From Deltaproteobacteria bacterium (GTDB taxonomy: Bacteria > UBA10199 > JACPAL01 > JAHFST01), in contig JAHFST010000003.1 of the NCBI GenBank assembly GCA_023265625.1, forward strand, positions 168,482 through 232,481: DNA of 64,000 bases. The letters are read 5' to 3'. The position numbers were made by a program, and so were the translations under genes. The notes under the pieces were generated by a model that worked only from the letters and a program-made list of their open reading frames with translations, searched no databases and had not been told where the DNA came from. This document shows positions 2,676 to 57,693 of this stretch, in pieces; the first letter of the stretch is position 1, and every line of letters begins with the position of its first letter.

Positions 2676-3497
2676 ATGCAACAAACCCTTGCTTCAATTG
2701 GCATCAACATTGACTGGTCCTTCAGCCTGACGGTGGGGGGCTTGATCATGACCCGTCTGGTCTTGATGGTGGCCACGATGCCATTTTTAGTCGGGAAGCC
2801 CGTCCCGGCACAGGTCAAGATGGGACTGATACTCGCCCTGTTGCTTTTTTTATACCCTTATCTCGCCCCGGAAAACAAAGCGGCCCTGCCTCGTGAGCCG
2901 CTCACTCTTTTTATGCTGTTTCTCAAGGAGGCCGGCATCGGTTTGACGATTGGCATGGCCGCCGCCATTGTGTTTCACGGCTTTCAGGCGGCGGGGAGCG
3001 TGGTGGACAACCAACGCGGGGCGGCCCAGGCCCGTCTGCTGATCCCGTCCTTGGGCGAGCAGGCCTCCATCTTTGGTAATTTTGAATATCAGTTGGGGTT
3101 GGTGGTGTTTCTTTGTCTGGATGGCCATGTGATGTTTTTGAAGGCCATCATCGATAGCTATGATTATTTGCCGCTGCTCAGTTTTCCCGCGGGACGGACG
3201 GATATGATCGACATGGTGGGCTTTTTTATCCAGTTGACCGGTCAGGTTTTGCTGCTGTCCGTGCAATTGGCGGCCCCGGTCCTAATCTCCATTTTTATTG
3301 CGGACATGGTGTTGGGGATCGTGAGTAAGACGGCCCCCTCGGTGAATGTCTGGGAATTGAGCTTTGCGGTCAAGGGCGTGGTGGGGGTTTTGGTGGTGTT
3401 TCTCTCGATCGGTTTGATCGTGACCCAGATGGAAAAATTGTCGTTGGGGATGGTGACGGATGTAACGCGGCTTTTGCGGTTGATCGCAACGCCGTAG
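2676..3497 (+). CDS. fliR: Export gate protein FliR (SctT family)
   Basis: 273 aa polytopic membrane protein; position after fliQ; FliR-like hydrophobic profile. Confidence 0.8.
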   Translation: MQQTLASIGINIDWSFSLTVGGLIMTRLVLMVATMPFLVGKPVPAQVKMGLILALLLFLYPYLAPENKAALPREPLTLFMLFLKEAGIGLTIGMAAAIVFHGFQAAGSVVDNQRGAAQARLLIPSLGEQASIFGNFEYQLGLVVFLCLDGHVMFLKAIIDSYDYLPLLSFPAGRTDMIDMVGFFIQLTGQVLLLSVQLAAPVLISIFIADMVLGIVSKTAPSVNVWELSFAVKGVVGVLVVFLSIGLIVTQMEKLSLGMVTDVTRLLRLIATP

Positions 3498-3521
3498 GGG
3501 CGTATTGCAATACGCCCCTAC
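3494..3521. repeat. REP family 1 palindrome GTAGGGGCGTATTGCAATACGCCCCTAC; its TAG is the fliR stop codon
   Basis: Sequence directly visible; overlaps the fliR stop at 3495-3497. Confidence 0.8.
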
Positions 3522-3530
3522 AGGACCGGC

Positions 3531-5288
3531 GTGACTTCCCTTTTATTTTGTTTTACATCCCTCCCTATGTTTCCACCACAAGCGCGTGAAAATTGGCGTC
3601 CCATTTTGTTGCTGTTTCTCATCTGTCTCCTGACGCGTCTCCCCAGTCTTTACACACCGATCATCGACATCGATGAGTCCATCTTTGCGATCTGTGGCGA
3701 AACGATTCGGCAAGGGGGCAAGCTCTACCTGGATTGCGCGGATCACCAGCCTCCGGGGATCTATTGGATGTTCGGGACGATTTTTTCCCTGTTTGGCGCC
3801 AACAATATGTTGGCCGTGCATGCGTTGACCCTCTTGATCGTTTTCTTCACGGCCTTGGCGTTGTGGTGGATTTTGGGGGGGCGCGCCGGATTTTGGTCAG
3901 CCCTGTTTTACGTCTTGTTCAGCACCACCCATATCCCAAAATATATCTCGACTAATATTGAGATCATCGCGAATCTTCCGTTGGTGTTGGCATTTGGCCT
4001 CGTCTTGCAGGTGCGTCCTAAATGGATGGATCTCCGTCATCTCTTGGCCGGCGCCTTGGCGGCGGTGGCCGTGCTGTTAAAATATCAGGTGCTCATCTTA
4101 TTGGGCCCCGTTGTGTTATTTCTCCTCATGACCCCGCGCCGTTTTTTCCTGCTCCTCACGGGCGGCGTGTTGGCGACGGGCGGGGCGATGCTCCTGTTGC
4201 ATTGGAACGGCACCCTCACGGCCTTCTACACCGAGACGCTGGTGCGCGGCTGGAACTACGCCACCCTGGGCGGGGCGACCATCTCCTTTTGGAAAAATTT
4301 GGTCACACGGATGGGGTTGACGGTGGGATTTTTCTCGTGGCTCTGGTGGTTTGCCGGACGGGGGATTGTTGACGGTTTCCGTGCCTGCCCGGAATGGGCG
4401 GCCACGGGGGGCCGCCCCTACAGGCCCTGGATCATTCTCCTGTGGCTGCTCGGAAGTTTTCTCGCGGTCCTGGCCGGGGCGCGTTTTTATCCGCACTATT
4501 TTATCTTGATGTTGCCGCCGCTGTGTTTGTTGGCGGGGGCACCAGCGGCCCATTTTTGGCGTCGCAGTGAAGCCCCGCCTGTAACGGCAGAGGTGATCCC
4601 TGGAGGGACCGAGGACCTGTCCGACGTAGCCATTGGTAAATCAATTTTCTCCCGAGGGAGCGGGGGCAGGGGCCCTGCGACCGGAGGGTCATGGAGACAG
4701 TGGGGCGAGGAGTTCCGCAGGGCCCGGAAGGGATTACCTCTGCCGTTACACTCGGCTTACTTTTTGATGTTGATCTTATGGGGGGTATTTTTTTTGCTAC
4801 CTAGAGTAAATTTTCAACGCAGCTATCAATGGTTCTACCAAAATCACGCCAACCTCGATGCCGGTACGGAGCCCATGTTGCATGAAGATGTCTATCGGTC
4901 TGTTGGGGAGTATATCGAGCAGCATTCGGTTCCCAGTGATCGCATCGTCGTCTGGGGTTTTTCGACCCCGATCTACTTTTTTGCCAACCGACTTTCCGCC
5001 TCACGCGAGATCTGGTCCGATGACCTGACCGGCCGTGTCCCCGGTTCGCCCCGGGCCTGGCAGGCTGATTTTGACACCACCCCCTACATCCGCCCAGGCA
5101 GCTGGCAAAGCTTCCTCCAAGAGTTGCAACAAAACCGCCCCCTCTGGTTCGTCGATACCGCCACCGCCAGCCTCAATTACTACGGCAAATACCCCATCCA
5201 AAAATACCCCCCCCTGTGGGAGTTTCTGCAGGCACACTACGCCCCAGAGCTCACTATCTCTGGTGTGCAGCTGTATCGGTTAAAATAA
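3531..5288 (+). CDS. GT-C family membrane glycosyltransferase (ArnT/PMT-like, GT39/GT83-type)
   Basis: Many TM helices; N-terminal DIDESIFAICGETIRQGGKLY...DHQPPGIYWMFG resembles the ArnT/PMT_2 catalytic loop; 585 aa. Confidence 0.55.
   Translation: MTSLLFCFTSLPMFPPQARENWRPILLLFLICLLTRLPSLYTPIIDIDESIFAICGETIRQGGKLYLDCADHQPPGIYWMFGTIFSLFGANNMLAVHALTLLIVFFTALALWWILGGRAGFWSALFYVLFSTTHIPKYISTNIEIIANLPLVLAFGLVLQVRPKWMDLRHLLAGALAAVAVLLKYQVLILLGPVVLFLLMTPRRFFLLLTGGVLATGGAMLLLHWNGTLTAFYTETLVRGWNYATLGGATISFWKNLVTRMGLTVGFFSWLWWFAGRGIVDGFRACPEWAATGGRPYRPWIILLWLLGSFLAVLAGARFYPHYFILMLPPLCLLAGAPAAHFWRRSEAPPVTAEVIPGGTEDLSDVAIGKSIFSRGSGGRGPATGGSWRQWGEEFRRARKGLPLPLHSAYFLMLILWGVFFLLPRVNFQRSYQWFYQNHANLDAGTEPMLHEDVYRSVGEYIEQHSVPSDRIVVWGFSTPIYFFANRLSASREIWSDDLTGRVPGSPRAWQADFDTTPYIRPGSWQSFLQELQQNRPLWFVDTATASLNYYGKYPIQKYPPLWEFLQAHYAPELTISGVQLYRLK
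4578..4750. mobile_element. MITE-like insertion with about 22-bp terminal inverted repeats, in-frame inside the glycosyltransferase gene
   Basis: Left end CCTGTAACGGCAGAGGTGATCCC (4578-4600); right end GGGATTACCTCTGCCGTTACA (4730-4750) is its reverse complement with one or two mismatches; internal GC-rich hairpins. Confidence 0.5.
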
Positions 5289-11535: not shown

Positions 11536-11625
11536 CCATTGAGGTGCGTTATCCGGATGAAAAAAGGGAGTTGTACTGGAATCGGTGGTTGTGGATTAAG
11601 TACACAATTTTTTGCATTCTACCAC
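11536..11625 (+). pseudogene. Internally deleted remnant of a HEPN-MNT cassette (HEPN 3' end fused directly to the MNT 3' end)
   Basis: 11536-11576 is near-identical to 12993-13032 (HEPN ...RYPDEKRELY); 11577-11625 matches 13385-13436 (MNT ...LESVVVE* plus downstream); about 350 bp of the intact cassette is missing. Confidence 0.55.
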
Positions 11626-12717: not shown

Positions 12718-13113
12718 ATGACGGTTCAGGACCTACAACAACTATTGGCTTATTGGCGTGAAGGTTCTGATTATGATTGGGGAACCGCTCAATCCCTATT
12801 GCGAGCGAAGCGCTATCCCTATGCCCTGTTTATGGGGCATCTTTCGTTGGAAAAATTGCTCAAGGGTTTGATCGTGAAAGAGACGAGAGACCACGCCCCG
12901 TTTACACACAATCTGGCCTATCTGGCGGGTAAGTTGCCCTTTGAATTCTCCAAAGAGCGGATCGTCTTTTTGGAGGAGATCAATAGTTTCAATATTGAGG
13001 CGCGTTATCCGGATGAAAAAAGGGAGTTGTACAAGCGGGCCACCAAAGAATTTACCAGGCGGATGATGAAAGAAATAGGGCTGGTGCGATTATGGCTGAT
13101 AAAAAAATATTAA
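12718..13113 (+). CDS. HEPN domain protein (toxin partner of the downstream MNT)
   Basis: 131 aa; ...NIEARYPDEKRELY... is the conserved HEPN R-x(4-6)-H-like region; 22-nt overlap with the MNT gene. Confidence 0.65.
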   Translation: MTVQDLQQLLAYWREGSDYDWGTAQSLLRAKRYPYALFMGHLSLEKLLKGLIVKETRDHAPFTHNLAYLAGKLPFEFSKERIVFLEEINSFNIEARYPDEKRELYKRATKEFTRRMMKEIGLVRLWLIKKY

Positions 13114-13409
13114 AAAAATTGAAAAAATTTAAGGGGCTTTTGCAAAAAGCGGGGGTTCCTGTTTACAAGCTGATCCTCTTTGGTTCTCAAGCCCGAGACA
13201 CGGCCAGACCGGATAGTGATATTGATGTCTGTGTGATCTCTCCCGCCTTAGGTAAGGACCGTCTCAAAGAACGACTTTTTCTGGCCCAACAGGCCCATAC
13301 CATTGATCCGCGTATTGAAGTGGTGGGCTATTCCAAAAAAGACTTTATGCACAATCGTGTCTCGCCTCTGCTCCATCAAATTCGCCTGGAATCGGTGGTT
13401 GTGGAATAA
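13092..13409 (+). CDS. Minimal nucleotidyltransferase (MNT antitoxin)
   Basis: LFGSQARDTARPDSDIDVCV is a classic GS-x(n)-D-x-D NTase motif. Confidence 0.75.
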   Translation: MADKKILKKLKKFKGLLQKAGVPVYKLILFGSQARDTARPDSDIDVCVISPALGKDRLKERLFLAQQAHTIDPRIEVVGYSKKDFMHNRVSPLLHQIRLESVVVE

Positions 13410-14561
13410 TTACACAATCTTTTTCACCCTACCACAGAGTTGCTGGAGAAATACCTCGACCGGGAGACAGAGGATTTCTTTTTGCAACAGGCGTTCTTGT
13501 CCTCGGTAGAGCAAGATGGCTTGGCATTCCGGGTATTCTTGTCGAAATGAGGTGAGCCCCCTGAGATCCTCCGGACGGACGCGCGGGGTGCTCTTGACTT
13601 CTATCGCCCAAAAAATATCGTTGCCATAGATGACAAAATCAACCTCCGTTTGGGCTTGAGTTCGCCAAAAGTACAGTTGATGATCGTCCGCAAAATAAGC
13701 CAGCCAGGCACGTAACTGTTGTGCGACTAGTCCTTCGAGGGCGGCCCCTTCAATCATGCCGGGTCGGTCGAGGGGGCCATGGGGGCGCAGCGATTGATAG
13801 ACACCGGTGTCGAAAAGATAAAATTTGGAGTGGGAGATCACGGCACGCTGACTCCTCTTCGCAAACACCGGTACGCGAAAGGCGAGCAGGAGATCTTCTA
13901 AAATGGTGATATAATTTGTCACCACCTTTCTTTCGACCTCGCATTCCCGGGCGACGTTATTGATATTGAGCACTTCTCCGTGTGAAAAACTGATGGCCTC
14001 GAGGAAGCGTGAAAAGTTTCCCACGTTTCTGACCAAGCCCTCCATTTGAACATCTTCACGCACGTAGAGGGCGACGTAACTCTTCAAAACCTCCGCTGGT
14101 TCGGGGGCGGCCATGACGATTGGGAGTAGTCCGGTTTGTAAAGCTTGTGTTAGCTGAAATTGGGCGCCTAACTCAGCGGCGGCGAAGGGGTGGAGCGTTT
14201 TTAACAGGGCTCGCCCCGCCAACAGATCGACCCCCGTTTTTTTAAGTTTTCGTGCGCTCGACCCGGTTAAGATGAATTTCAACCCCCGTTTTTCTTCAAT
14301 GAGTTGATGAACCACGTCGAGCAGTGCTGGGACCTTCTGAACTTCGTCAATGAGGATGACTTGTTCCGATTGGCCGAATATCGCTTCGCGGAGCCGTTCC
14401 GGTCTGGCGCTGTAGACCCGGTCCGTCTCAGGATCCAGGAGGTCAATGCGGAGGGCCGTAGGAAATTGGTATCGCACCCAGGTCGATTTGCCACTCCCCC
14501 GTGGGCCAAACAAAAAGAAGCTCATCTTCGGATCTTGTAAAAAACGATGTATTGATTCCAT
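13410..14561 (-). CDS. AAA+ ATPase of the AAA_14/DUF4143 family
   Basis: Walker A FGPRGSGKST, Walker B ILIDEVQ, then a long DUF4143-like C-terminal region; 383 aa. Confidence 0.8.
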   Translation of the reverse strand: MESIHRFLQDPKMSFFLFGPRGSGKSTWVRYQFPTALRIDLLDPETDRVYSARPERLREAIFGQSEQVILIDEVQKVPALLDVVHQLIEEKRGLKFILTGSSARKLKKTGVDLLAGRALLKTLHPFAAAELGAQFQLTQALQTGLLPIVMAAPEPAEVLKSYVALYVREDVQMEGLVRNVGNFSRFLEAISFSHGEVLNINNVARECEVERKVVTNYITILEDLLLAFRVPVFAKRSQRAVISHSKFYLFDTGVYQSLRPHGPLDRPGMIEGAALEGLVAQQLRAWLAYFADDHQLYFWRTQAQTEVDFVIYGNDIFWAIEVKSTPRVRPEDLRGLTSFRQEYPECQAILLYRGQERLLQKEILCLPVEVFLQQLCGRVKKIV

Positions 14562-15252: not shown

Positions 15253-15296
15253 CAAAGAGACCGATACTTTTAGGAGTCGGTTAGAGAGACAATTTT

Positions 15297-18278
15297 ATGG
15301 GTGATGGTGACAATTATCTCAATAGCGGTCGAACGACACTTTATCCAAACTTGGATCATCAGGAGTTTGGGCCGAAGACTCCTTTGGATGTGGGGGAATA
15401 CGAACAGTGTCTGGTCAATGATGACGGCAAGGGGCAAACGAAATTTGATTCCGGTTATGAAAAACTCCGTCATGTGGTGATTAATACGGGGGAGCAGGCG
15501 GTGCAATTTTTGGAGCCTGGCAAGGTTTTGGAAGATGGGCAGACTGATCCGACCAAGGGTCAGATGTCCGACCTGCTCTATTCCACTGATGCATTCATAC
15601 TCACTCAGAAATACCCCAACGGTGCCACGGAATCCAAAACCCCATTGGGGACCTGCCATGTGGGGAATCGGTTGTTTGTTTATGAGAAGCATAAAATCTT
15701 TAGCAATGTCATGGGCCCCAATGATTCCATCCCGTTTCAAAAACAAGCAATTAAAGGGCTGACTGCAGAACAGGTGATTAGGATTGTGAAACACCTTAGT
15801 AATCCCTCCCTGTGGAAGTTGGATGGGGGTACTCGGGAAGATAAATTCAAGTACAATCTTTATCTTCGTAATAACGAACTGGATACGGCGTTGGCATTGC
15901 GCTCCTGGATGGAGACAGACGGCAATTTTTCTCCGAAAGGATGTTTCATGATGTCCGATACCACCAAGTGGTTTGGACCGGTTTCATTGGTGATGGGCTT
16001 AGCGGATTATTTTTTTATGGATGAGGACCAAGCGACCTGTCAATCCGTCGAGCAACTTGACGAATACATAAGGCCATTGAGGGATCAACGTTATATGATG
16101 GCGTTGCAAATTGGCGGTATTGCCGTTTCCTCCTTTATTGGGGCCTATACTTTTGTCCCAGGATTTCGTTCTGCGTTCAACCGTCCCTTCAAACTAGCTT
16201 GGCGTGGATTAGTCAAGGGAGTGAAAATGGTTTTCCCATTTTTGCGAGGCGTGGCCAGTACCCCGATGGGCGAGTTTGCGGGGAGGCTTTCTCCCATTAT
16301 GGCCAATCTTTCGGAATTGGCCCGAGAGTATCTCAAAGATCCTGAAGCTTTTCTGAAGAAATACCCCAAAGGGATTCCCACGCTCGATAACCAATGGGCC
16401 AGCGTGGAAGATCTTGTGCCGTCAGGGCATCCCCTGACAGAGGATGTTGATTATGATGACATTATTGCCATCAAAAACACCTTATTGCGCGATAAAAATG
16501 CCAGCCCCTTTGTGACCGGCCCCGCAGGGGATGGAAAGACCTATCTTTGCCTAAAATTCATGTTGTATGCGGCGCGGGGTGATTTAGGTCCGGAATTGCA
16601 GAAGGTGGATTTTTTCAATATCAGCAAAAACATCATCGATGGGCAACCCAAGGAAAGCGATTATTCCAAAGGGATTTACGGAGGTCCTGAAAGATTTGTG
16701 GCCGACCTGAATACGGCGATGGACAAGAGCGCCGCTCAGGGACGGCGGGTGGTGCTTTTTGCGGATGATGGGGCCACCCTGGTGGACGCCGGTGTTCAGG
16801 AAAATCCCGAGCCGGGACAGAGAAAGGCCCCCATTTCTTTCTTAGAATCGGTTTTGAGCAAATCTGCCGGTGGTAATGCCTTCAGCATGCTCCTGACGGC
16901 GACTACCAAAAAGTTCGCGTATGCGGAAGGACGTCAGCCTGACTTTTTCGGACCGACGGGACGTGGGCAGAGAGTTGACAGGCGGCCCAAGACCCAGGAG
17001 CAGGTCATGTCCATTTTGGAAAAGCGGGCGAAGGTTATTGGTCGTAAGTTAAAGATTCAGTTTGGTCCGGGAGCCCTCCAGGAGATTGCCCGGGCCTCCT
17101 ACCAAAAGCTGGGACTCTACAATCCTCGTGCGGCTGAAAATGATCTGGAAAAATTTTCGCGTGAGGCGTTGGAAGAGGGATCGGATCATCTGACTCCTGA
17201 TATGGTTAGACGGTTTGCTACGAAGGATTCCGATAATCGGTTTACCCGCATGATGGCGGATGCATTTTCGGAAGGACTCGATATGGTGCAGGTCCCTGAA
17301 TTTGAGAGGGTGGTGATGGATCGCGTCATTTCTGGGACTGAACCGTCTTTTGAAAAATGGCTCCAAGGTGATCGATCAAAGATTTTGTCGGCCCTCTACA
17401 CCGTTTGGAAGGACAACCCTAATATTCAAGCAACCTTTAAAGATCAGCATGGCCAGAACAACGCCTTTACGGCCTTTGTGGAGAGGGCATTGGGCGATAT
17501 CAATGTAAAACGCGCCATGGATGATGCCTTGTCACGACATGAAGTCATTGCTGGGATGCAGGATAAAGATACGTCCAGAGCCGCCGCCACCGGCCAACCC
17601 GGGAAACCAAATGCTGACCAAGAGAGGGATAGGAGAATGATGAGACAGATTGGTGCTATCTTGCGTACCATCTATCCTGATTTTCAGGATCCCCATTACA
17701 GCGATGTGGTCACCCATTTATCACAAATTCTTCATGAGAACTTGAAAGCGGTCCGAGCTGCTTCAGGGGGAGGTGCCGATGATCCTGTTTCTACGCCTTG
17801 GGTAAGGATGTTGGCCAATCAGGCGATGTCGCAATGGGCGCAAAGCGATCCTAGTTTTGCGGGAATCATGAGCCGATCAACGTCACAGTCCCCTGCACTC
17901 ACTCCTGAGCCCGTTTCACCTCCAGCAGTCTCCGCCGCTCCTGACCTCGCTGCGACCGGAGCCGCTCAACCTGACATGAGCCGTGTAGAGGCCATGACTC
18001 GATTGGCTGTGTATGCTTTTAGTACCCGTGTAGATGGTTGGGGGCAAGTGCCAGGAGAACTTCAGCGGGACATGATTAAGGAGGTTCTGCAGCAAAGAGA
18101 AGTGGGTGGGCTATTTCATGGCGGTCGCGACAGCTTTAGGACTGATTTGACGGAACTTGTTCGATTGACCGATCGGGTGGCTGAGAGTGTGTCACAACAA
18201 GAGAAATCGGTTCGGTTGAGGAAAGAAGAGGAAGTGAAAAAGGCGAGAGAACGTGAGGCTGTGCCGGTTTTCATTTGA
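15297..18278 (+). CDS. Large protein F: conserved novel N-terminal domain (about 145 aa) followed by a ClpA/ClpB-NBD1-like AAA+ module
   Basis: [22 protein letters not shown] aligns with ClpB [39 protein letters not shown] aligns with ClpB ILFIDEIHTLVGAG (Walker B Glu is Asp); N-terminus [25 protein letters not shown] is shared with the 23122 gene. Confidence 0.6.
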   Translation: [993 protein letters not shown]

Positions 18279-18301
18279 TTGCAAAAAATAACAAGTAATG
18301 A

Positions 18302-19354
18302 ATGGGGGGAATTATTATGGGAGAGCCAGGAGATAAATTAGTTGTAGCCACAGATCCTAAATTAGCCCAAGCCCTCTCTGTTTTGGCCGGCCCGCCACCG
18401 GTTCTTCCTTCAGTCGCTCGTGGAGCAAAAGAGAAAACAGATCTTCCTCAAAAGGGACAGGTGCCAGGGGGCGCCGATGAATTTATCTCCGGTCTGGGTC
18501 TAAACGGAAAAACCATTACCACCGGGCCTTTTACCGGATTGTATAAAGATAAATGCAGCGGACGAGGTTCCAACAAGGTTAACGGCTATACCTTTTCTCC
18601 CGACAAACTCCGGGCCATCGGTAACACCTTTTACCCGGCCAACAACGGCGGTTTTGATCACAAAAAAACCTATGTGGTGGATGACGAGACGGGAGACCCG
18701 ACGGGGAATGCCTATATTTGTTTGGATACGGCGGACAAGGCGACGAACGATGCGGCCTTGAAGGCTTTGGATGATAAATGTCCTTTGGGAGATGGGAAAG
18801 AGGAGAAGGCAGAATGTGACGCCATCAAGAAGACTTTTTTAGCGGCGGAACATACGCACGGTTTTTGGGAGGATCATGCGGGCACATTTTATGTCTTTGG
18901 GCTCATGATTCCGGCAGTGGCCTTGGTTGGTGGTGCGCTTTGGAAAGGACCGGCGTTGTTGGCCTCCTGGAGAGGGCGTCCCTCGGTTGTCGCCCGCACA
19001 GAAGGGCAGGCTGCTCGTGTTGTGGCCACCGAAGTGCGCACGGCCGGTGCCGCGGAGCGTCTTGCCGCCGTTGGGGCTCGCGTGGAAGAGACTGCGGCGG
19101 TTGTTGGGGTACGAGAAGTAGCGGCTCTTGAATCTCTAGAAGCTCGTGCTGCAAGTAGATTGCCTAGCGTAGCCAAGGTAGCCGGACTCCTGATCGTGGC
19201 CGGCCTAGCGCTGTTTGGCGGCCCACGGGATGTCTCTGCGGCCGAGTTGCCGAACGAGCCGGGTTATCTAGGCGGTTCCCACCCCGAAGGGGCCAAGGTC
19301 CCAGCGGCCAGCGCTACTAGTCATAATCCCTTTGCTGATGTGTTGGGGGAATAA
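18302..19354 (+). CDS. Protein G: tail-anchored protein with conserved C-terminal module ...VAKVAGLLIVAGLALFGG...HNPFADVLGE
   Basis: The C-terminal 60 aa are about 70% identical to the C-terminus of the 25508 gene product; one C-terminal hydrophobic helix. Confidence 0.5.
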   Translation: MGGIIMGEPGDKLVVATDPKLAQALSVLAGPPPVLPSVARGAKEKTDLPQKGQVPGGADEFISGLGLNGKTITTGPFTGLYKDKCSGRGSNKVNGYTFSPDKLRAIGNTFYPANNGGFDHKKTYVVDDETGDPTGNAYICLDTADKATNDAALKALDDKCPLGDGKEEKAECDAIKKTFLAAEHTHGFWEDHAGTFYVFGLMIPAVALVGGALWKGPALLASWRGRPSVVARTEGQAARVVATEVRTAGAAERLAAVGARVEETAAVVGVREVAALESLEARAASRLPSVAKVAGLLIVAGLALFGGPRDVSAAELPNEPGYLGGSHPEGAKVPAASATSHNPFADVLGE

Positions 19355-20643: not shown

Positions 20644-23079
20644 ATGGGGGATCCTAATCCAACGACGGTTGTATCCAATACACGTACCTGCTCACCGCCT
20701 TACGTGTGTGAGGTCGAGGGCGATTTTGGCTTCACCGGAATTGATTCAGGTCCGGTCCTGACTCAGCCGCTTGATACCGGTGACCAAGTGGTGCCACCGC
20801 CGCCTCGCGTGGCATCAACCCCGCCTGCCGCCGTCAAACTTTGGGGTGAGACCGAGGCCTTAACCGAACCATTTTTGCAGGACATGCGCACGAAGATCGC
20901 CAGGGTCCCGGCGGAACAAGGTCCATTTTTTCCGTGGTTTCGTGCCGATGACCGAAAACTTCAGGTGGGGAAAAGTTACTCATTTGCGTCCTATTTTTCT
21001 TCACTTCCGGAGCATTTCCAACTCCTGTTTGCGAAGGTGAAGGATCTCCCCGGGGTGGTTTTTTCTCCCCAGTATTTGTTGATCGATGGGAAACAGGTCC
21101 CGGTGGTTTATGTCTCGCAGGTTCGGGTGGAGGATAATCCGTTTGGGATTGATCCGTTGTTAAATCAATTGCCGGGCGCGGTAGGGGCGTATCGCAATAC
21201 GCCCGTACAGGATGCCGCGTTGTTGCCGCCGGAGGCGCAGGTTATTCGGAATTTAGGGGGCTATCCTATCGGGGTCGTAATGGCCCCGGAAATTGCGCGG
21301 GTGATGTACACGGCAGATGAATTGGTGGTTGCAAAACATGACTCTGATTTTCCCGTGCCACAAGATTTATTCCCTGTAGGGGCGCCGCTTGCTGCGCCCC
21401 CTTTCTCGGCAACCCTTTCTTTAGGTTCAATACCCAAAGTTCACGCCCCCCGCTTCGAGGCGGCGGCCGATCTGGGAAGCAATTTCACACCGGCTGGTTG
21501 GGGTTACCTGGCCGATGCCAATGATCTTCCTGCCTACTATTCCTTGATGCATGGCGAAGCAGAGGTTTTCTCAGCAGAAGGGTCCGCAAATCTTTCAGTC
21601 AATACGGCATTTGTCGGGGGGATTACGATCGAAGCGCGTGGCATTCGTTCTGCGGGCGCTTTTTTGGCACGATCGAGTCGTGTCCTGGCCCCGTTTCTTA
21701 AGCTGGCGGGCCGCACCCTTGGGATTGCCACCATGGGGGGTGTCCCTGATATCCCCTTCGATGTGGGATTGGCTGTTTATGAACCGGGTGATCCTAACGA
21801 ACGTCTCTGGCTCCTGGTGGAACAAAATCGAGACGCGGCGTTGGGCTTTGGTTCCTTCCTGATCCCGGTCAAATGGTTGGATACGATGAAGCGCAATTCC
21901 GATGAGAGCGATGAACAGAGTCACGTTCGCGTCATCCAATCAACAGCAGATGGGTATGTGATGGATACCGACCAACTCGGTGAGGTCTTGGACGAGTCAT
22001 TGGAAAAGATGTTTATGGCGGAGCTTCTCGCTTCGGGAAAAATTGACTTTCAATTGTTGGAGGATGGCGGGCTGAAAAAAATTGTCCCGAATGAAGGAAA
22101 ATTTAGGCTGGACATGATGGATGTCCGGCGTGGAACTTGGAATCTATTTTCTTCGGATAAAAGGATCCATCAAAGTGTTGCCGCACTTTACGAACTTCTT
22201 GAGTTTACCGGGTTTAGGGCAAAGCGCGGGGAGGCGGTCAAGGAGTTGCTCAATTCCAATGGAGAACCTTATCACCCGACCCACTTTCGAGCCTATTGCC
22301 TGGCCAAGATCAGCGAATGGAAGCGGCAGGCCCAGGAATCACTCAAGAGGGAATTAGTGAGCGTTGGTTTGGGGGGATACGATGTGACTGGAAAGTTTGT
22401 TAATTATTACGGCACACTCAATCATTACACGCCCGCGCAACAGTCCCTGATCGACAAAGAGGAACAGGTCAAGCCAGCCTATCAGTCTGGGGTGAAAATT
22501 GCCTCAGCGTCAAACCCACAGGGCTCTTGGACCCTTCGCATCCGCATGCTTGATATCATGCAGCGTACCCTCATTTTTGCAGAACAGCATTCGGAAACAG
22601 CGGATGCTCAATTGGAGGCCCTGGCACCCGCGGATCGTCACGCGGTTGATCAGGCCCTCGGACAATTGCGGAGGGATCCATTAAAAGGGGATAGTCGATT
22701 GTATACCCCTTGGAGCCCTGAAGATCAGGCGGAGAAAACAACGTTGATTCGTGACATCGCTCGGGGACTGACTCAGAATGAGCTGGATCTCCCTCTCCCC
22801 TTTGATTGGCAGCGCCAATACAAAATGGCGAGAACCACCAGCGCGTCTTTTGGCGACATCTCCGCAGCCTATATGTCTCAAGGAGGCTCCAACCCCCTGC
22901 AAGCCGAGAAAAAAGCCCGGGCCCACGAAGCATTGGACTCGGCCCAACGCTACGTCTGGAAGGATCGCAGCCTGACTGTGGACAATAAATTTCGCATTGA
23001 TTATTCCCTCGATGGAGACGCCTCGCCGCAGGGTGGTGGGGAAGGTAGCATCGTTATTCGACAGATTGTGAAATTGTAA
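20644..23079 (+). CDS. Large hypothetical protein I (811 aa)
   Basis: Long ORF starting MGDPNPTT...; contains an in-frame REP (21181-21208, encoding VGAYRNTPVQ). Confidence 0.5.
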   Translation: MGDPNPTTVVSNTRTCSPPYVCEVEGDFGFTGIDSGPVLTQPLDTGDQVVPPPPRVASTPPAAVKLWGETEALTEPFLQDMRTKIARVPAEQGPFFPWFRADDRKLQVGKSYSFASYFSSLPEHFQLLFAKVKDLPGVVFSPQYLLIDGKQVPVVYVSQVRVEDNPFGIDPLLNQLPGAVGAYRNTPVQDAALLPPEAQVIRNLGGYPIGVVMAPEIARVMYTADELVVAKHDSDFPVPQDLFPVGAPLAAPPFSATLSLGSIPKVHAPRFEAAADLGSNFTPAGWGYLADANDLPAYYSLMHGEAEVFSAEGSANLSVNTAFVGGITIEARGIRSAGAFLARSSRVLAPFLKLAGRTLGIATMGGVPDIPFDVGLAVYEPGDPNERLWLLVEQNRDAALGFGSFLIPVKWLDTMKRNSDESDEQSHVRVIQSTADGYVMDTDQLGEVLDESLEKMFMAELLASGKIDFQLLEDGGLKKIVPNEGKFRLDMMDVRRGTWNLFSSDKRIHQSVAALYELLEFTGFRAKRGEAVKELLNSNGEPYHPTHFRAYCLAKISEWKRQAQESLKRELVSVGLGGYDVTGKFVNYYGTLNHYTPAQQSLIDKEEQVKPAYQSGVKIASASNPQGSWTLRIRMLDIMQRTLIFAEQHSETADAQLEALAPADRHAVDQALGQLRRDPLKGDSRLYTPWSPEDQAEKTTLIRDIARGLTQNELDLPLPFDWQRQYKMARTTSASFGDISAAYMSQGGSNPLQAEKKARAHEALDSAQRYVWKDRSLTVDNKFRIDYSLDGDASPQGGGEGSIVIRQIVKL
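21181..21208. repeat. REP family 1 palindrome GTAGGGGCGTATCGCAATACGCCCGTAC inside the coding sequence of protein I
   Basis: Same unit as 2356 and 3494 with two substitutions; in frame. Confidence 0.7.
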
Positions 23080-23115: not shown

Positions 23116-23121
23116 GTGAAT

Positions 23122-25500
23122 ATGGGCGACAATGACGATTACCTCAATAGCGGTCGAACGGCTCTTTATCCAAATCTAGACCATCAAGAATTCGGGTCCA
23201 GGACTCCCTTGGATGTGGACGGGTACGAACCATGTTTGGCTGATGACACCGGTTATGAAAAGCTCCGGCACGTGGTGATAAACCAGGGAGAGCAGGCGGT
23301 CCAATTCTTGAAACCTGGCAAGGCCTTGGAGGCTGGACAGGCGGATCCGACTCATGCTCAGATGCCGGACCTGATTTATTCCACCGATGCGTTTACGCTG
23401 ACCCGGAAATATCCCAATGGTGCCACGGAATCCAAGACCCAATTGGGGACCTGTCATGTGGAAAATCGGTTGTTTGTGTATGCACGACATCCCATCTTGA
23501 GCAAGATTTGTCCCGACCCTGGAAAGATGGCCGTCTCCAATTACCAGTCAGTGGCGGGATCACAAGGCCTCGGCCCCGGGGAAGTTGTTAAGCTGGCTTC
23601 AGCCCTGGTTGGTTCTGCCGATCCCTCCCAATCGAGCTTATTTTGCGTGACTGAGCCGGATCCGAATCGGGGGATGAAGAGGGATTTTCAGTTCGAGAAG
23701 CCGAGTTTGACCAATATCAAGACCTACCTGGACTTTCTGAAGAAGCTCAGATCCGAGCAAGCCGATGTGGCGCTCATCAATGGGTTTGAAAATTTCATCA
23801 GCCCTACAAAGCTCCAATACGATCAGATGGATGAAAATACGGGTTGGCCAGGATGGTTCAAGATGTTGGTTAGTACTGTGGCAGGAGCGGTTATTGGCAC
23901 TGGTCTTTGGTTTCTCTTCATGTGGTTGAAAGAAAAGAAGAGCAATCCGTTTGATAATAAAATTTTCTTGGAGAAAACGGTGACAGACAAGGCTCAGGGT
24001 TTCAAGGGGGTGCAGTGCAAGGCCCCCGAGTCAGTGCATAAATATGTGCGTGACATGGTGGACGTCTTTCGAGTCAAACGGGGGCTACGCCGGCTTGGCC
24101 CGACAGGAACTAACAAAGGCTACAGTATTGACATGCTCATTTGCGCGATCGTGAACAACCAATTGAAAGAATTGGATTCTGAGGTGGCAAAAAAATTACC
24201 TCCCAATACACAGATTAAATCGATGTCATCCATGAATTTGAAGGGCGGTGCGGGGTCGTGGAAAGATAGAAAGGCCACGATTCAGGCGGAAGTGTTGAAT
24301 TTGGGGGCAAACGGACCACTCCTTCTCATCCTAGAGGAGGCCGATGCCTTTCTCGAAAAAAATGCCCATGGAGAAATAGACCAAGAAGCCTTGGAATTTT
24401 TCAGGAATCTCTTGACGCCTCTTGACCCCGAGACCTCGAACCCAGCCTACAAGAATATTTTTATCATCATCGATACGAGTAGGCCCCATGAGGAGGATTT
24501 CACTCAACATCTTCCGGATATCTTTCGCAGGACCTCAATCGTTGAAAGTATTCCTCCTGTGGTTGAGGATTTGGATGATTTCCTTAGGTCACGCATTGAG
24601 AGGAAGTTGGACGATGGGTTTACAACCCTAAAGGGGAAGGTTAATTTCACAGATAGCGCCATTCGTGCGCTGTCCGTATTGGGTATCGATTCTAAAGAAG
24701 GTTCGCCTCCCTCCTGCAATGGCAACATGTTGGATTTTTTTCTGGCTTATTTGGTAAAAAACGGAATTTCGGGGCAAGTAGATGAAGGAAAAGTCGTTGA
24801 CTTTATCGTCTTTCGATCTAAAAAAATAACAACCCCCGAAGTTCGCGCACTGCTTGATCAAGCCAAGCGAGATCCCCGATTTTTACAAGATCGTATTAAC
24901 CAGGCGTTTTATGCGGCTTATCAACCGGTTCAGGGGCGTGTGGACCCGCTTAGGACCGGTACCGCCGCGCCTTCGAACCTATCTGAGGTTGCCACTGCCG
25001 AGGAAAAGGTCGACCCCGAAGCCGAACAATACGCCCTCACCACTCTCCTCTATTTGGCCATCGCCGAGAGTGATCCCACTTATTCGAGGTTGGGCCATGA
25101 TGAGAAAGAGACTCGTTTTAGCAACACCGTGGGGCTCCTCCGGCACGACGGGGCCTTGAATCCTGGCCAAGAGGACTACGCGGTTCGGGTGTCGGTCCAG
25201 TTGGCCCTGAGGGATCGGGTGACAGGGTTTGATCAATTGCCACAATCCCTGAAACAATCCCTCTTTCAACGCTCCTATGATTCCTGGAGCGGCCCAAGCA
25301 ACATCCTGGTGCGCCGTCCCGGCAGTTTCAAACTCAAGGGCGGGGATGGGGTGACCTTGATGATCGAGGCCCATGTCGACAAGGTGGTTAAGGAACGAAA
25401 GATTGAGATCGAGGCCCAGGCCGGTGGGGTCCGCTATGACCTCTTGGAGCCCGCGCAGGCCAAGCAACAACGCGCACTGCGCAGAAAATTTGGTCTCTGA
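23122..25500 (+). CDS. Protein J: paralogue of F (conserved N-terminal domain) with a degenerate ClpB-like AAA+ module
   Basis: MGDNDDYLNSGRTALYPNLDHQEFG is about 80% identical to F over 145 aa; P-loop is degenerate (GPTGTNKG); LLLILEEADAFL is Walker-B-like. The true start is taken as 23122, not the listed 23092, which would overlap the promoter. Confidence 0.55.
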   Translation: MGDNDDYLNSGRTALYPNLDHQEFGSRTPLDVDGYEPCLADDTGYEKLRHVVINQGEQAVQFLKPGKALEAGQADPTHAQMPDLIYSTDAFTLTRKYPNGATESKTQLGTCHVENRLFVYARHPILSKICPDPGKMAVSNYQSVAGSQGLGPGEVVKLASALVGSADPSQSSLFCVTEPDPNRGMKRDFQFEKPSLTNIKTYLDFLKKLRSEQADVALINGFENFISPTKLQYDQMDENTGWPGWFKMLVSTVAGAVIGTGLWFLFMWLKEKKSNPFDNKIFLEKTVTDKAQGFKGVQCKAPESVHKYVRDMVDVFRVKRGLRRLGPTGTNKGYSIDMLICAIVNNQLKELDSEVAKKLPPNTQIKSMSSMNLKGGAGSWKDRKATIQAEVLNLGANGPLLLILEEADAFLEKNAHGEIDQEALEFFRNLLTPLDPETSNPAYKNIFIIIDTSRPHEEDFTQHLPDIFRRTSIVESIPPVVEDLDDFLRSRIERKLDDGFTTLKGKVNFTDSAIRALSVLGIDSKEGSPPSCNGNMLDFFLAYLVKNGISGQVDEGKVVDFIVFRSKKITTPEVRALLDQAKRDPRFLQDRINQAFYAAYQPVQGRVDPLRTGTAAPSNLSEVATAEEKVDPEAEQYALTTLLYLAIAESDPTYSRLGHDEKETRFSNTVGLLRHDGALNPGQEDYAVRVSVQLALRDRVTGFDQLPQSLKQSLFQRSYDSWSGPSNILVRRPGSFKLKGGDGVTLMIEAHVDKVVKERKIEIEAQAGGVRYDLLEPAQAKQQRALRRKFGL

Positions 25501-25507
25501 TGGAGGA

Positions 25508-26677
25508 ATGATGGGAATTGGAAACACAGCGATATCTATCATTGGGAATCTAGGATTTACCAAGGGGCCTAATTACACCGAGCTTCTGGAGAAGAAAGGC
25601 ATTTCACTTGCCTTACAAAGCTATGTGAAAACTCAGGGAGTGAAGCCGGAACAATTTGCCCAATTCATTGTATGGGCTGGGGAGCGAGACAAGACACCGG
25701 AACTCCTGGACCAGTTTCTCAAGGGGCAGAACAAGGGACAAGAGATCCAGGCGGGTGTTTATCGGACATTGCATCTTGGGACCGATGGTTTTTTGCAGGA
25801 TGGTGATTATTCAGGTCATGCCGTCGCGCAGTGTGAGGCCCCGCAGTTCAAGGAATTGTCGGGGATATGGAACCCCGATCAGGTTGCCGAACTTTGCCGC
25901 TACTTGGGTGTGACGGAACCTGCAAATTGTTTCTTAAGTCTCAATGCGGCGCAAGCAGGAAAGGTTTGTTTTGAGGCCAATCAACCGGGCAGAAATCGCG
26001 AGGTGCTGGAGCGGGTGGATGGTTTTATGTGGTCTCACGGCGATTGCCCCTTCGATTGGAGTCACTGTGATGCGATCCAAGATGCGGAACAAGAGGCCTT
26101 GGGGGTCAAAGATTTTTTGCAGAGAATTTGGGAGGATCTTCCTGGAACTCTGCTGACTGTGGTTGGCTTTGGTTTGTTGGGGTGGTGGTTTAAGGATCGA
26201 TTGCCTCCTTCTGGGAGAGGGGGCGGAGGGGAGGGTGGCGGCAATAAAGAGGGGCCACCCAAGGGCCCAAGTCCTGAGCCAATTTTCATTCCGCACCTAC
26301 TGCCTGCCCCGAAACCCATCACGAACCCAAGTCGATTGTTACCCGAACATTCTGGTGGTTCTTCGGCGGATGTTGATACGAAGGCGCTGTTCGAGACGGG
26401 TATTATCGTTGCCACGATGGCAACCGCTTACAAGGTTTATCAGGCGGCGGCGGGGGGTGCCACGATTCGTGTCGCGAGTGGATTGCCTGGAATGGCCAAG
26501 GTTGCCGGACTCGTGATGGTGGCGGGCTTGTCACTGTTTGGCGGCTCACGGGAGGCGGCTGCGGCCGAATTGCCGCAGGAGCCAGGATACCTGCTTGGGA
26601 ACCACCCCGAAGGGGTCAAGGTACCAGTGATTAGACCTATGAGTCATAATCCCTTTTCTGATGTCCTGGGAAAATGA
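25508..26677 (+). CDS. Protein K: paralogue of G by C-terminus (...MAKVAGLVMVAGLSLFGG...HNPFSDVLGK), different N-terminal domain
   Basis: C-terminal module conserved with G at protein and DNA level (about 75% nt identity); start placed 8 nt after the J stop. Confidence 0.5.
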   Translation: MMGIGNTAISIIGNLGFTKGPNYTELLEKKGISLALQSYVKTQGVKPEQFAQFIVWAGERDKTPELLDQFLKGQNKGQEIQAGVYRTLHLGTDGFLQDGDYSGHAVAQCEAPQFKELSGIWNPDQVAELCRYLGVTEPANCFLSLNAAQAGKVCFEANQPGRNREVLERVDGFMWSHGDCPFDWSHCDAIQDAEQEALGVKDFLQRIWEDLPGTLLTVVGFGLLGWWFKDRLPPSGRGGGGEGGGNKEGPPKGPSPEPIFIPHLLPAPKPITNPSRLLPEHSGGSSADVDTKALFETGIIVATMATAYKVYQAAAGGATIRVASGLPGMAKVAGLVMVAGLSLFGGSREAAAAELPQEPGYLLGNHPEGVKVPVIRPMSHNPFSDVLGK

Positions 26678-31326: not shown

Positions 31327-31776
31327 ATGGACAAAAAAGAAAAAATCGAGAACAGTACTCAGGCTGAAGCCGATCACTACAATGGGATCTTGCTTGAGGA
31401 TATGCGGTCGCAGATACAGTTGGTCATAGAAAAGGTCATGGGTTCTGAGGAGTCGTTAAGAGGCGAGATGCAGTTGATGCGGACCGATTTTGAGGGACGA
31501 TTCCAAGGGCTTGAAGCCTTGATCAAGATGAATTCTGACGATATCAAGACAAATTCTGAGGAAATTCATGGACATAGCAAGATACTCGCATCACATAGTA
31601 AGATACTCGAATCGCATAGCAAGATACTTGCATCACATAGCACGGTACTCGAATCACATACTAAAACCCTTGACGAGCATAGCCGGAGCCTAGATCGCAT
31701 TGAGACCAAGTTGGACCGTCTGGTGGACAAGGTCGAAAAGCATGACCAGGCCCTCCATCAGATGGGTGCCCTGTAG
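31327..31776 (+). CDS. Small coiled-coil protein with tandem heptad repeats (HSKILAS/HSKILES x5)
   Basis: 149 aa; encoded by 21-bp tandem repeats at 31573-31677. Confidence 0.45.
   Translation: MDKKEKIENSTQAEADHYNGILLEDMRSQIQLVIEKVMGSEESLRGEMQLMRTDFEGRFQGLEALIKMNSDDIKTNSEEIHGHSKILASHSKILESHSKILASHSTVLESHTKTLDEHSRSLDRIETKLDRLVDKVEKHDQALHQMGAL
31573..31677 (+). repeat. Five tandem 21-bp repeats (CATAGCAAGATACTCGCATCA-like)
   Basis: Direct inspection: catagcaagatactcgcatca / catagtaagatactcgaatcg / catagcaagatacttgcatca / catagcacggtactcgaatca / catactaaaacccttgacgag. Confidence 0.8.
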
Positions 31777-31930: not shown

Positions 31931-31969
31931 TGGTCTGTAAGGGAGAAAACTATGTCATTCGGAGGCACT

Positions 31970-43271: not shown

Positions 43272-44021
43272 TTAAAGACGATTGCCAAAAATCCCGGTAC
43301 CGATCCTCACCAGGGTTGATCCCTCCTCAATCGCCACCTGATAGTCGTGAGTCATCCCCATGGAGAGCTCGGTGAGGGGAAGCTTATACACCCTCTTATT
43401 ATTAATTGCATCACGAATCTCACGGAGATGCTTAAAGTGAGGGCGTGCCGCCTCGGGATCGCTGGCTGGGGGCGGCATTCCCATGAGGCCTGTTAACTCC
43501 AGGTGGGTGAGGGGGGATAGTGCCCTGATGAGTGGATCCAGCGCTGCGAGGGCAATCCCACTCTTGGTGGCCTCTCCCAAATTGACCTCAATCAGGATGG
43601 GTTGGATTTTTCCCAGTTTGGCGGCTTGGTGGTTGATTTCTTCGGCAAGGCGCAGTGAGTCGACCGAATGAATCAAGGACACCTTGTCGATGATTTGTTT
43701 GACCTTATTGCGTTGCAGGTGGCCGATGAAATGCCATGTTGTTTCCTGTAGGGGCACCCCTCCGTGGGTGCCCTCTGCTTGGGTGCCCTCACGGGCCGGG
43801 CGGCCACACAGGGCCGCCCCTACGTGTTCCAATAATTCCTGGGCGTAGTTCTCGCCAAAATCCCTCTGACCTGCCTGCCAGGCTTCTTCTATCCTTGTGG
43901 TCGGTTGCCCCTTCGTGACGGCAATGAGGGTCACATGGGGGGGGATCTGTTGCCGAAGCTGCGATAATTTCTCGAAAATCGTCATTTCATTCTCTATAAT
44001 TGTTTTTTTCAATAATTTCAT
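43272..44021 (-). CDS. yggS: YggS-family pyridoxal-phosphate homeostasis protein (alanine-racemase-fold PLP-binding)
   Basis: VTLIAVTKGQP (PLP lysine), WHFIGHLQRNK, SMGMTHDYQVAIEEGSTLVRIGTGIFG; carries an extra 25 aa encoded by a REP insertion. Confidence 0.85.
   Translation of the reverse strand: MKLLKKTIIENEMTIFEKLSQLRQQIPPHVTLIAVTKGQPTTRIEEAWQAGQRDFGENYAQELLEHVGAALCGRPAREGTQAEGTHGGVPLQETTWHFIGHLQRNKVKQIIDKVSLIHSVDSLRLAEEINHQAAKLGKIQPILIEVNLGEATKSGIALAALDPLIRALSPLTHLELTGLMGMPPPASDPEAARPHFKHLREIRDAINNKRVYKLPLTELSMGMTHDYQVAIEEGSTLVRIGTGIFGNRL
43748..43823. repeat. Compound REP family 1 element (GTAGGGGCACCCCTCCGTGGGTGCCC...GGGCCGGGCGGCCACACAGGGCCGCCCCTAC) inserted in-frame in yggS
   Basis: Bounded by GTAGGGG and CCCCTAC; the encoded segment GAALCGRPAREGTQAEGTHGGVPLQ has no counterpart between the ENYAQEL and WHFIG motifs of canonical YggS. 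Confidence 0.7.
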
Positions 44022-50259: not shown

Positions 50260-51738
50260 ATGTCCTTGTCACCTGAATTAATCAAATGGCGTAACCACAT
50301 ACGGGAGATTGCGCTTGGCTACGGGCTCGATTTCTTCGAGGTCATCTTCGAGGTGCTCGATTGGAAACAGATGAATGTCGTGGCCTCTTACGGAGGATTT
50401 CCCAACCGTTACCCCCACTGGCGTTTTGGGATGGAGTACGAGCAGATCAGCAAGAGCTACGCCTACGGCCTGACGAAGATTTATGAAATGGTCATTAACA
50501 ACGATCCTTCCTACGCGTATTTGCTGCATTCCAACGCCTTGATGGATCAAAAGTTGGTGATGGCCCACGTGTACGGGCATTCGGATTTTTTTAAGAATAA
50601 CTTTTACTTCAGCCATACCAACCGCAAGATGATCGATGTGATGGGAAATCATCGTTCGAAGGTGCAACGCTATATTGACGAATATGGGTTGGATAAGGTT
50701 GAGGCATTCATCGATCAGTGTTTGTCTTTGGAGAACCTCATTGATTACCACAGCCCTGCCATCAAGAGACAACGCTTTCATGAAGATGAAGTGTTGGGTG
50801 AGGAAAAAGACACTAAGGTTTCTGTCAAGAAAATGAAGAGCAAAGAGTACATGGATACCTTTGTCAATCCCAGTGATTTTCTGGCGGCGCAACAAAAGAT
50901 GATCGAAGAGGCCAAGAAGAAGGAAAAGTCATTTCCCGAACACCATGAACGCGACGTGCTATTATTTTTGATCAACTATGCCCCCTTGGAGCGGTGGCAA
51001 AGGGATGTGCTCACGATGATCCGCGATGAGGCCTATTATTTTGCCCCGCAGCGGCAAACGAAGATCATGAACGAAGGTTGGGCCGCTTATTGGCATACCA
51101 CTATGATGACGCAAAAAATTTTGGACGATACCGAGGTGATTGATTATGCCGATCACCACTCTGGCACCGTGGCGCCGCATCCGGGGCGTGTCAATCCTTA
51201 CAAGCTCGGGATGGAGTTGTTTCGTGACATTGAAGATCGTTGGAACAAGGGTAAGTTTGGCAAGGAGTTTGAAGACTGTACAGACTTCAAGGAGAAGAGA
51301 GTTTGGGACAAAAAACTAGGGCAGGGACGGGATAAAATTTTTGAAGTCCGCAAACTCTACAACGACCTGACATTTCTCGATGCCTTTCTCAACGATGAAT
51401 TTTGCGTCCAGCAGAAGATGTTCACCTATGCCTACAACCCCAACAACAATACCTATGAGATTGTCGATCGTGATTGGCGGAAGGTAAAGGCCAAACTGTT
51501 ACAGTCCCTGACCAATTGTGGTAGCCCGATTATTGAAATTGTCGACGGGAATTACAACAATCGGGGGGAGATGCTGCTCAAACATCATTTTGACGGGGCG
51601 ACTCTCAAGATGGATTGGGCCTGGGAGACCTTGAAGAATCTCCAGTCTTTGTGGGATCGTCCGGTTTATCTTGAGACGATGGTGGAAGGCATTCCGAAGG
51701 TCCTAAGTTTTGACGGCAAGGAAACCCACGAAAAGTAG
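50260..51738 (+). CDS. spoVR: SpoVR family protein
   Basis: 492 aa; third gene of the prkA triad. Confidence 0.85.
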   Translation: MSLSPELIKWRNHIREIALGYGLDFFEVIFEVLDWKQMNVVASYGGFPNRYPHWRFGMEYEQISKSYAYGLTKIYEMVINNDPSYAYLLHSNALMDQKLVMAHVYGHSDFFKNNFYFSHTNRKMIDVMGNHRSKVQRYIDEYGLDKVEAFIDQCLSLENLIDYHSPAIKRQRFHEDEVLGEEKDTKVSVKKMKSKEYMDTFVNPSDFLAAQQKMIEEAKKKEKSFPEHHERDVLLFLINYAPLERWQRDVLTMIRDEAYYFAPQRQTKIMNEGWAAYWHTTMMTQKILDDTEVIDYADHHSGTVAPHPGRVNPYKLGMELFRDIEDRWNKGKFGKEFEDCTDFKEKRVWDKKLGQGRDKIFEVRKLYNDLTFLDAFLNDEFCVQQKMFTYAYNPNNNTYEIVDRDWRKVKAKLLQSLTNCGSPIIEIVDGNYNNRGEMLLKHHFDGATLKMDWAWETLKNLQSLWDRPVYLETMVEGIPKVLSFDGKETHEK

Positions 51739-57417: not shown

Positions 57418-57660
57418 ATGGCAGAGAATTGCAAAGTTTCGGGATGTAAGCGGCCTTATCGGGCCAAAGGGTATTGCAATGTGCATTATCGGGGATGGCG
57501 TCAGGGCGAGTTGCCGCATCCGCGTTATAAGACTTGTTCCAAGGATGAATGTCGCAAGCCGGTGACCAAAAAAGGCCTTTGTGCGAACCATCTCAAAGAG
57601 GTTTATCCCAAATTGGCCCCGGCGGAGGCGTCCCCTGCTGCAGAGACCGCGGCCCTGTAG
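57418..57660 (+). CDS. Small Cys-rich protein (putative zinc ribbon), 80 aa
   Basis: CKVSGCKRPYRAKGYC and CSKDECRKPVTKKGLC give paired CxxC motifs. Confidence 0.4.
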   Translation: MAENCKVSGCKRPYRAKGYCNVHYRGWRQGELPHPRYKTCSKDECRKPVTKKGLCANHLKEVYPKLAPAEASPAAETAAL

Positions 57661-57693
57661 GGGCGTATTGCCATACGCCCCACATACGCCCCC
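57657..57693. repeat. REP family 1 variant GTAGGGGCGTATTGCCATACGCCCCACATACGCCCCC; its TAG is the stop of 57418..57660
   Basis: Left arm and loop identical to the 2356 and 3494 units. Confidence 0.7.

Follow-up and report, generated by a model that had tools for sequence, protein, structure and literature searches.

Fusion of a miniature inverted-repeat transposable element (MITE) in frame with a host open reading frame (ORF) is documented for intragenic ERIC, QMITE1 and Anabaena MITEs, and most prominently for the Rickettsia palindromic elements (RPEs) (PMC10969869). RPEs are ∼150 bp long (Ogata et al., 2000, as summarised in PMC10969869). Doublets of repetitive extragenic palindromic (REP) sequences forming hairpins (REPINs) and the REP-associated tyrosine transposases (RAYTs) (Bertels and Rainey) are described in PMC3337134, where the REPIN is 89 bp. 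Here we describe a 171-nt element bounded by near-perfect inverted repeats within a predicted GT-C fold glycosyltransferase gene of an uncultured deltaproteobacterium. It lies in a 64,000-nt stretch of contig JAHFST010000003.1 (positions 168,482 to 232,481 of the forward strand), which was analysed as a whole and is referred to below as the window.

The element resembles the RPEs of Rickettsia in being short and hairpin-capable, in lying in frame in a coding gene where it is translated, and in being compatible with the fold of the host protein; as in Rickettsia, the same genome holds several other in-frame palindromic inserts. RPEs, however, form multi-copy families with conserved peptides, whereas the element has one known copy and a peptide without a homologue, and its inverted repeats are discrete 21-bp arms, not a palindrome spanning the entire element. 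The likeness is one of architecture, with no sequence relationship expected, and the window has a GC content of 51.5%. With bacterial MITEs (Correia, ERIC, QMITE1, Anabaena) the element shares its size, its terminal inverted repeats (TIRs), the lack of a transposase gene and its fusion to an ORF in frame, but it differs from them in having no target-site duplication and in that neither other copies nor a parent insertion sequence (IS) were found. Like REPs and REPINs, it consists of a less conserved spacer between two conserved inverted ends and lacks a target-site duplication; true REPs and a RAYT-like gene occur in the same window. In contrast to them, its ends carry no short palindrome of their own and read GTAA for GTAG, it is not repeated in the 71.6 kb covered, it is 171 nt long rather than the 89 bp of the REPIN, and REPINs are typically extragenic.

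We give about even credence to the reading that this is a MITE-like, TIR-bounded, non-autonomous element that landed in loop-coding sequence, survived by keeping the frame and is now translated as a disordered loop. A short non-autonomous element (171 bp, with 21-bp arms and TG...CA ends) would have inserted into the codons for a short loop preceding one of the last membrane helices of the glycosyltransferase, presumably arriving by transposition with a transposase encoded elsewhere. Because its length is a multiple of three and its landing frame holds no stop, the gene stays intact and the element is translated, and the enzyme would have tolerated the resulting 57-residue Gly/Arg/Pro-rich loop. 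Insertions that shifted the frame or brought in a stop would have cost the protein its conserved C-terminal domain and would not have persisted, so that the in-frame state would reflect a survivorship filter rather than a design feature.

The insertion in the glycosyltransferase gene

The host gene and the parts of the element are as follows.

3531–5288, plus strand: host gene, predicted GT-C fold, PMT_2/ArnT-like membrane glycosyltransferase; ORF from GTG 3531
4580–4750, plus strand: inserted element, 171 nt or 57 codons, with TG...CA termini and 63% GC; peptide ...VTAEVIPGGTEDLSDVAIGKSIFSRGSGGRGPATGGSWRQWGEEFRRARKGLPLP...
4580–4600, plus strand: left terminal inverted repeat, TGTAACGGCAGAGGTGATCCC
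4730–4750, minus strand: right terminal inverted repeat, TGTAACGGCAGAGGTAATCCC in the minus-strand reading
4601–4729, plus strand: element core, only marginally palindromic overall, holding a 10-bp perfect internal inverted repeat
4570–4574, plus strand: flank AAGCC, complementary to GGCTT at 4754–4758, forming the basal helix of the predicted fold
4754–4758, plus strand: flank GGCTT, pairing with 4570–4574

The host ORF encodes 585 aa from the GTG at 3531; public gene callers begin at the ATG at 3567, giving a product of 573 aa. The protein matches Pfam PMT_2 just above threshold (27.3 bits against a cut-off of 26.1). An AlphaFold model computed from a 10-sequence alignment (predicted template modelling score, pTM, 0.81) has its best Foldseek matches in the Protein Data Bank (PDB) to ArnT (5f15, E = 6.7e-6), and also matches the STT3 and AglB oligosaccharyltransferases. 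On the strength of this model the host belongs to the glycosyltransferases of GT-C fold. The acidic motif D46-x-D48-E49 is intact, and D46, D48 and E49 are invariant across the aligned homologues. With its uninterrupted ORF and this invariant motif, the gene looks functional as judged from its sequence.

Homologues are few: a collection of 5.8 billion proteins yielded only 21, eight of which were aligned. P0002 comes closest, with 47% identity by BLASTP and 56% over aligned columns. The insert is missing from all eight, P0002 included. Between the landmarks of the FW..PR stretch the window protein has 84 aa and P0002 has 28 aa, a difference of 56 residues against the 57 codons of the element. 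By these alignments, the segment is an insertion relative to every homologue found. Orthologues sharing the insert, the outcome that the original prediction had set against itself, were thus not seen in any of the eight.

The frame is kept: the insert is read through in the frame of the gene without a stop, giving one product of 573 or 585 aa depending on the start, and both the in-frame placement within a GT-C glycosyltransferase gene (supported here by PMT_2, the ArnT/STT3 fold match and the single product) and the Gly/Arg-rich peptide quoted in the original prediction stand as described there. The insert peptide is 57 residues long, Gly/Arg/Pro-rich and of low complexity. In the predicted structure it sits between helices 321–347 and 406–426, and residues 350–388 have a predicted local distance difference test (pLDDT) score below 50, in agreement with the loop position expected from the letters of the sequence. 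The loop is probably disordered in the model, and its Arg/Lys-rich flanks, read by the positive-inside rule, suggest that it is cytoplasmic.

Chimeric reads can yield inverted repeats, and an assembly artefact such as a fold-back chimera would also account for the arrangement. We consider it extremely improbable. An independently assembled European Nucleotide Archive (ENA) contig, L001, covers the same locus; the two agree at 99.7% over 3,357 nt and do not differ within the element (173 identical nt), and the exact 573-aa product is recorded on four contigs; the preserved frame also argues against an artefact.

Ends, core and predicted fold

The inverted repeat itself is observed directly. The arms are 21 nt long and complementary at 20 of the 21 positions (one mismatch). 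With up to three mismatches allowed, these two sites are the only arm matches in the window, and two matches occurred in none of 100 dinucleotide-preserving shuffles, with zero expected by chance. The original prediction was therefore right about the inverted repeat, and its sizes need a small correction: it gave the element 173 bp and arms of about 22 bp, but 173 is not a multiple of three, and the best unit is 171 nt with arms of 21 nt. The repeat search extends the complementarity to 36 nt at 81% (4575–4610 with 4720–4755). The segment is GC-rich, as first described (63%, whereas the remainder of the gene has 55% and the window 51.5%), and the internal hairpin noted at the outset corresponds to a perfect 10-bp inverted repeat, 4670–4679 with 4716–4725.

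Beyond the arms and the adjoining 20–30 nt, the interior is barely more palindromic than shuffled sequence (P = 0.07). Near-perfect arms together with such an interior indicate conserved ends that enclose a core, as opposed to a single long palindrome. Conserved arms around a weakly palindromic core have the look, at the level of sequence, of an end recognised by a transposase and not of a perfect palindrome in decay. An IS with ends matching the element would have the terminal sequence TGTAACGGCAGAGGT... Six-frame translation of the element gives low-complexity peptides only, and it has no coding capacity of its own.

The predicted RNA fold of 4570–4760 is very stable (-100.5 kcal/mol, z = -5.25, equalled by none of 200 shuffles); the minus-strand RNA of the same interval has z = -3.65. 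Such a fold, the almost identical arms and an ORF that is intact in two assemblies would all suit a segment kept for a function, either as an mRNA hairpin affecting how the 3′ half of the message is translated or how stable it is, or through a role of the loop peptide, with the inverted repeat under selection. This explanation seems to us very improbable. Searches of Rfam gave nothing at the gathering threshold and, at E values up to 1, one chance match to a long non-coding RNA (15 bits), and a scan for terminators and promoters found no such site associated with the element. The peptide is without a homologue, of low complexity and of low pLDDT. Finally, the absence of the insert from all homologues means that it is not needed for the enzyme family.

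Target site and search for further copies

Several results weigh against a MITE-like element that arrived by transposition. Exact direct repeats at the edges of 4580–4750 do not exceed 1 nt (flanks ...CCCGCC / CTCGGC..., with CC and CT as the immediate bases), and the best candidate for a target-site duplication is the degenerate 6-mer CCCGCC/CTCGGC, which matches at four of six positions (P about 0.07 by estimate). Three of the six frames of the element are free of stops, which is unremarkable for such a composition (P = 0.08). No second copy of the arms or the core occurs in the window together with 7.6 kb upstream from the same strain (71.6 kb in total). Scans with exact 20-mers of the arms through 185,579 GTDB species genomes (one per species), the JGI metagenomes and IMG/VR returned no paired arms; they returned five single-arm loci, all within coding sequence, and no IS-like context was seen at any of the five. 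When cluster representatives were searched exhaustively with the insert peptide (HMMER), no real homologue appeared; this search had low power and did not recover the host protein itself.

The scope of these searches bears on how they are read. The original prediction had looked to other copies of the TIR in the genome; ∼72 kb of that genome was covered, and there the inverted repeat is unique. The arms of the window itself were not returned from GTDB, JGI or IMG/VR, so the source genome evidently lies outside the collections scanned. The host protein was probably missed among the cluster representatives because a relative without the insert represents it.

Candidate matches from these searches were rejected. 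The exact-arm loci (L003–L007) have neither a partner arm nor similarity to the core and are attributed to chance; L005–L007 are three near-identical loci with the same coding sequence as L003, from a Sulfitobacter metagenome-assembled genome, and there is one further locus. The lone HMMER match is to a eukaryote-like tandem-repeat protein (E = 5e-4) and is spurious. A blastn search of plasmids with the element gave only noise at E = 7. A TA target-site duplication in the style of IS630 or Correia elements was also considered and rejected, because it implies an insertion of 167 nt, which would shift the frame.

A single copy wherever we searched and the absence of a target-site duplication would suit an insert made on the spot and immobile since, in which filler DNA, a template switch or hairpin-primed repair produced an in-frame, tolerated, quasi-palindromic insertion. 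The complementary 5-bp flanks (AAGCC/GGCTT) point the same way, in that the site may have been hairpin-prone, and the different, unrelated hairpin insert in the P0002 gene, detailed below, could reflect a mutational tendency of the lineage rather than transposons. Template switching, however, copies nearby sequence, yet the arms and core match nothing else in the window; there is no similarity to the core elsewhere in it, and the core is therefore not a local duplication. The 28-aa stretch of the homologues leaves no room for a pre-existing half of the repeat. Moreover, pairing at the ends is almost complete and the mismatches cluster in the interior, a contrast that a perfect palindrome decaying uniformly would not be expected to show. 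We judge an origin of this kind unlikely, though it is the main rival to the MITE-like reading. The AAGCC/GGCTT flanks themselves may be coincidental, may belong to the target or may belong to a unit of 189 nt.

Compared with MITEs as generally described (∼50–500 bp, without a transposase), the element has the size and lacks the transposase, it has TIRs, and it has no target-site duplication. The label "MITE-like" in the original prediction thus holds for the TIRs, the size and the insertion; the target-site duplication and the parent IS that would complete it were not found. In shuffles, a single given frame of the element stays open in ∼20% of cases. As size, inverted repeats and the lack of coding capacity are the only MITE features found, we class the element as an orphan case of in-frame MITE/RPE-like insertion. 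MITE status would call for a multi-copy, transposase-mobilised element, and mobility of this element is unproven.

REP-type repeats and the RAYT-like gene

The window also holds REP-type repeats, other palindromes within genes and a transposase gene, of which those bearing on the element are listed here.

4395–4425, minus strand: REP-type hairpin in the glycosyltransferase gene, CCTGTAGGGGCGGCC CCCCGT GGCCGCCC, in frame, of a related REP family
43746–43825: REP doublet GTAG...CTAC, in frame within the YggS-family gene 43272–44021, minus strand
52107–52188: 82-nt palindrome of a C-rich/G-rich family, within the Caroten_synth (Pfam) membrane-protein gene 51605–52513, minus strand
53796–54551, minus strand: RAYT-like / IS200-like Y1 transposase gene, with HPH and YIDLNP motifs

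The motif GTAGGGGCG occurs 12 times in the window against 0.3 expected. The transposase at 53796–54551 matches Pfam Y1_Tnp with 29.3 bits (cut-off 23) and NCBIfam REP_Tyr_transpos with E = 1.3e-14, the latter at a score of 54, below the curated cut-off of 80. Its gene lies on an AT-rich island (38–45% GC) flanked by TAAGACGGAG-type repeats.

Elements mobilised by HUH/Y1 transposases leave no target-site duplication, and none is present here. This raises the explanation that the element is a hairpin element moved by such an enzyme in the manner of REPINs or of IS200/IS605, perhaps by the RAYT-like protein of 53796–54551, whose gene is in the window. The left end of the element, CCTGTAACGGCAG, shares 10 of 13 positions with the REP consensus CCTGTAGGGGCGG, and REP-type repeats do occur in frame within genes here. 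Yet the end reads GTAA, not GTAG, and the arms are not self-palindromic: their DNA folds have z = 0.18 and -0.86, whereas a true REP of the window (3488–3527) reaches -5.6. Other copies of the element are lacking, the NCBIfam score of the transposase falls below its curated cut-off, and on its AT-rich island the transposase gene has its own TAAGACGGAG-type repeats, so that a link even to the GTAGGGGCG REPs is unproven. We therefore hold this explanation to be rather improbable. The link of the RAYT-like gene to any of the repeats in the window, the ends of the element included, is unproven.

In REPs and REPINs, of which a genome has many copies, each end is a short imperfect palindrome with a conserved GTAG before it. 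Membership of the element in either was rejected in its own right, since its ends are GTAA for GTAG and its arms, which fold no better than shuffles, are not self-palindromic; by definition, it is neither. That it is unrelated to the REP families of the window, as first proposed, agrees with arms that do not fold on themselves and with the lack of any match to its arms or core elsewhere in the window.

A REP family of near-perfect 28-nt palindromes, GTAGGGGCGTATTGCAATACGCCCCTAC, occurs at 2352–2387, 3490–3525, 21177–21212 and 57653–57688; its sites include the gap between fliP and fliQ and the gap between fliR and the glycosyltransferase gene. Public short-read contigs of the same strain break at GTAGGGGCGTATTGCAATACGCCCCTAC repeats, and one of them (L009) ends within the copy after fliR.

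Other in-frame palindromes of the lineage

The glycosyltransferase gene carries a second, smaller insert at the REP-type hairpin 4395–4425. P0002 lacks ∼13 aa at this position, and the hairpin has 78% identity over 41 nt to part of the insert in the YggS-family gene. YggS is a conserved gene of pyridoxal phosphate (PLP) homeostasis. The REP doublet in the window copy coincides exactly with a stretch that is unaligned to the solved YggS structures in the PDB. A relative represented by the Logan contig L008 from SRR22388058 (95.5% DNA identity over 1.6 kb) has exactly 60 nt (20 codons) fewer at this insert and reads GTAGGGGCGG|CCCTACAGG at the site (L008 250–270). Judged from the two sequences, the difference would have arisen either by recent insertion of a REP in frame or by a deletion mediated by a hairpin; a recent in-frame change of palindromic DNA in the lineage is in either case observed.

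The 82-nt palindrome at 52107–52188 consists of an outer stem with two inner hairpins and has a DNA fold of z = -4.7. The Pfam match of its gene to Caroten_synth spans 223 residues for 198 profile positions.

We suggest tentatively, and with somewhat less than even confidence, that this lineage is Rickettsia-like in its use of RPE-type insertions although it stands outside that group and combines several unrelated types of repeat: GTAG REPs and doublets, C-rich/G-rich palindromes and the orphan TIR element would repeatedly have been fixed in frame in conserved genes (the GT-C transferase, YggS and the carotenoid-synthesis family), differing between genomes of ∼95% identity. If this is true, new protein loops would arise regularly from "extragenic" palindromes and their transposase, with the 171-nt element the largest example. 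The context of in-frame palindromes in the lineage favours the reading of the element as selfish DNA.

Taken alone, the 171-nt element is a modest finding, a single and apparently tolerated insertion, and the lineage-wide pattern of in-frame palindromic insertions is the more interesting lead. In-frame capture of selfish palindromic DNA is among the few single-step routes to a long new loop in a bacterial protein, and capture of palindromic DNA in this way is well documented mainly for Rickettsia. The present case is a further, clean example, from an uncultured bacterium and in a membrane enzyme, and the comparison with the empty site in YggS makes the tempo and the tolerance of such insertions measurable.

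Three further palindromes were seen within genes or at their edges. In the P0002 gene (L002 2243–2347), ∼105 nt form an unrelated, GC-rich hairpin (-68.9 kcal/mol, z = -4.4); translated in frame, it contributes ∼33 residues to another loop of the orthologous enzyme. A GTAGGGGCG REP lies at 51735, where the 55-residue C-terminal extension of the Caroten_synth ORF overlaps the end of the SpoVR gene. At 36418–36467, a 50-nt palindrome starting with GTAGGGGCG lies inside the 322-aa ORF 36153–37121 (plus strand), which public gene callers call a gene, though it has no Pfam match.

Other repeats in the window

About five tandem copies of a 21-nt unit (CATAGCAAGATACTCGCATCA) at 31573–31677, upstream of the ORF 31952–33505, resemble iterons or an array of operator sites. 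Direct repeats of ∼40–50 nt with 88–97% identity (11538–11625 and 12994–13435) flank a gene for an RlaP-type nucleotidyltransferase beside a DUF4143 ATPase gene, and this repeat-flanked region may be a small mobile or duplicated cassette. Paralogous gene blocks at 15296–19354 and 23121–26677 share stretches of 126–261 nt at 77–79% identity, which suggests a duplicated operon.

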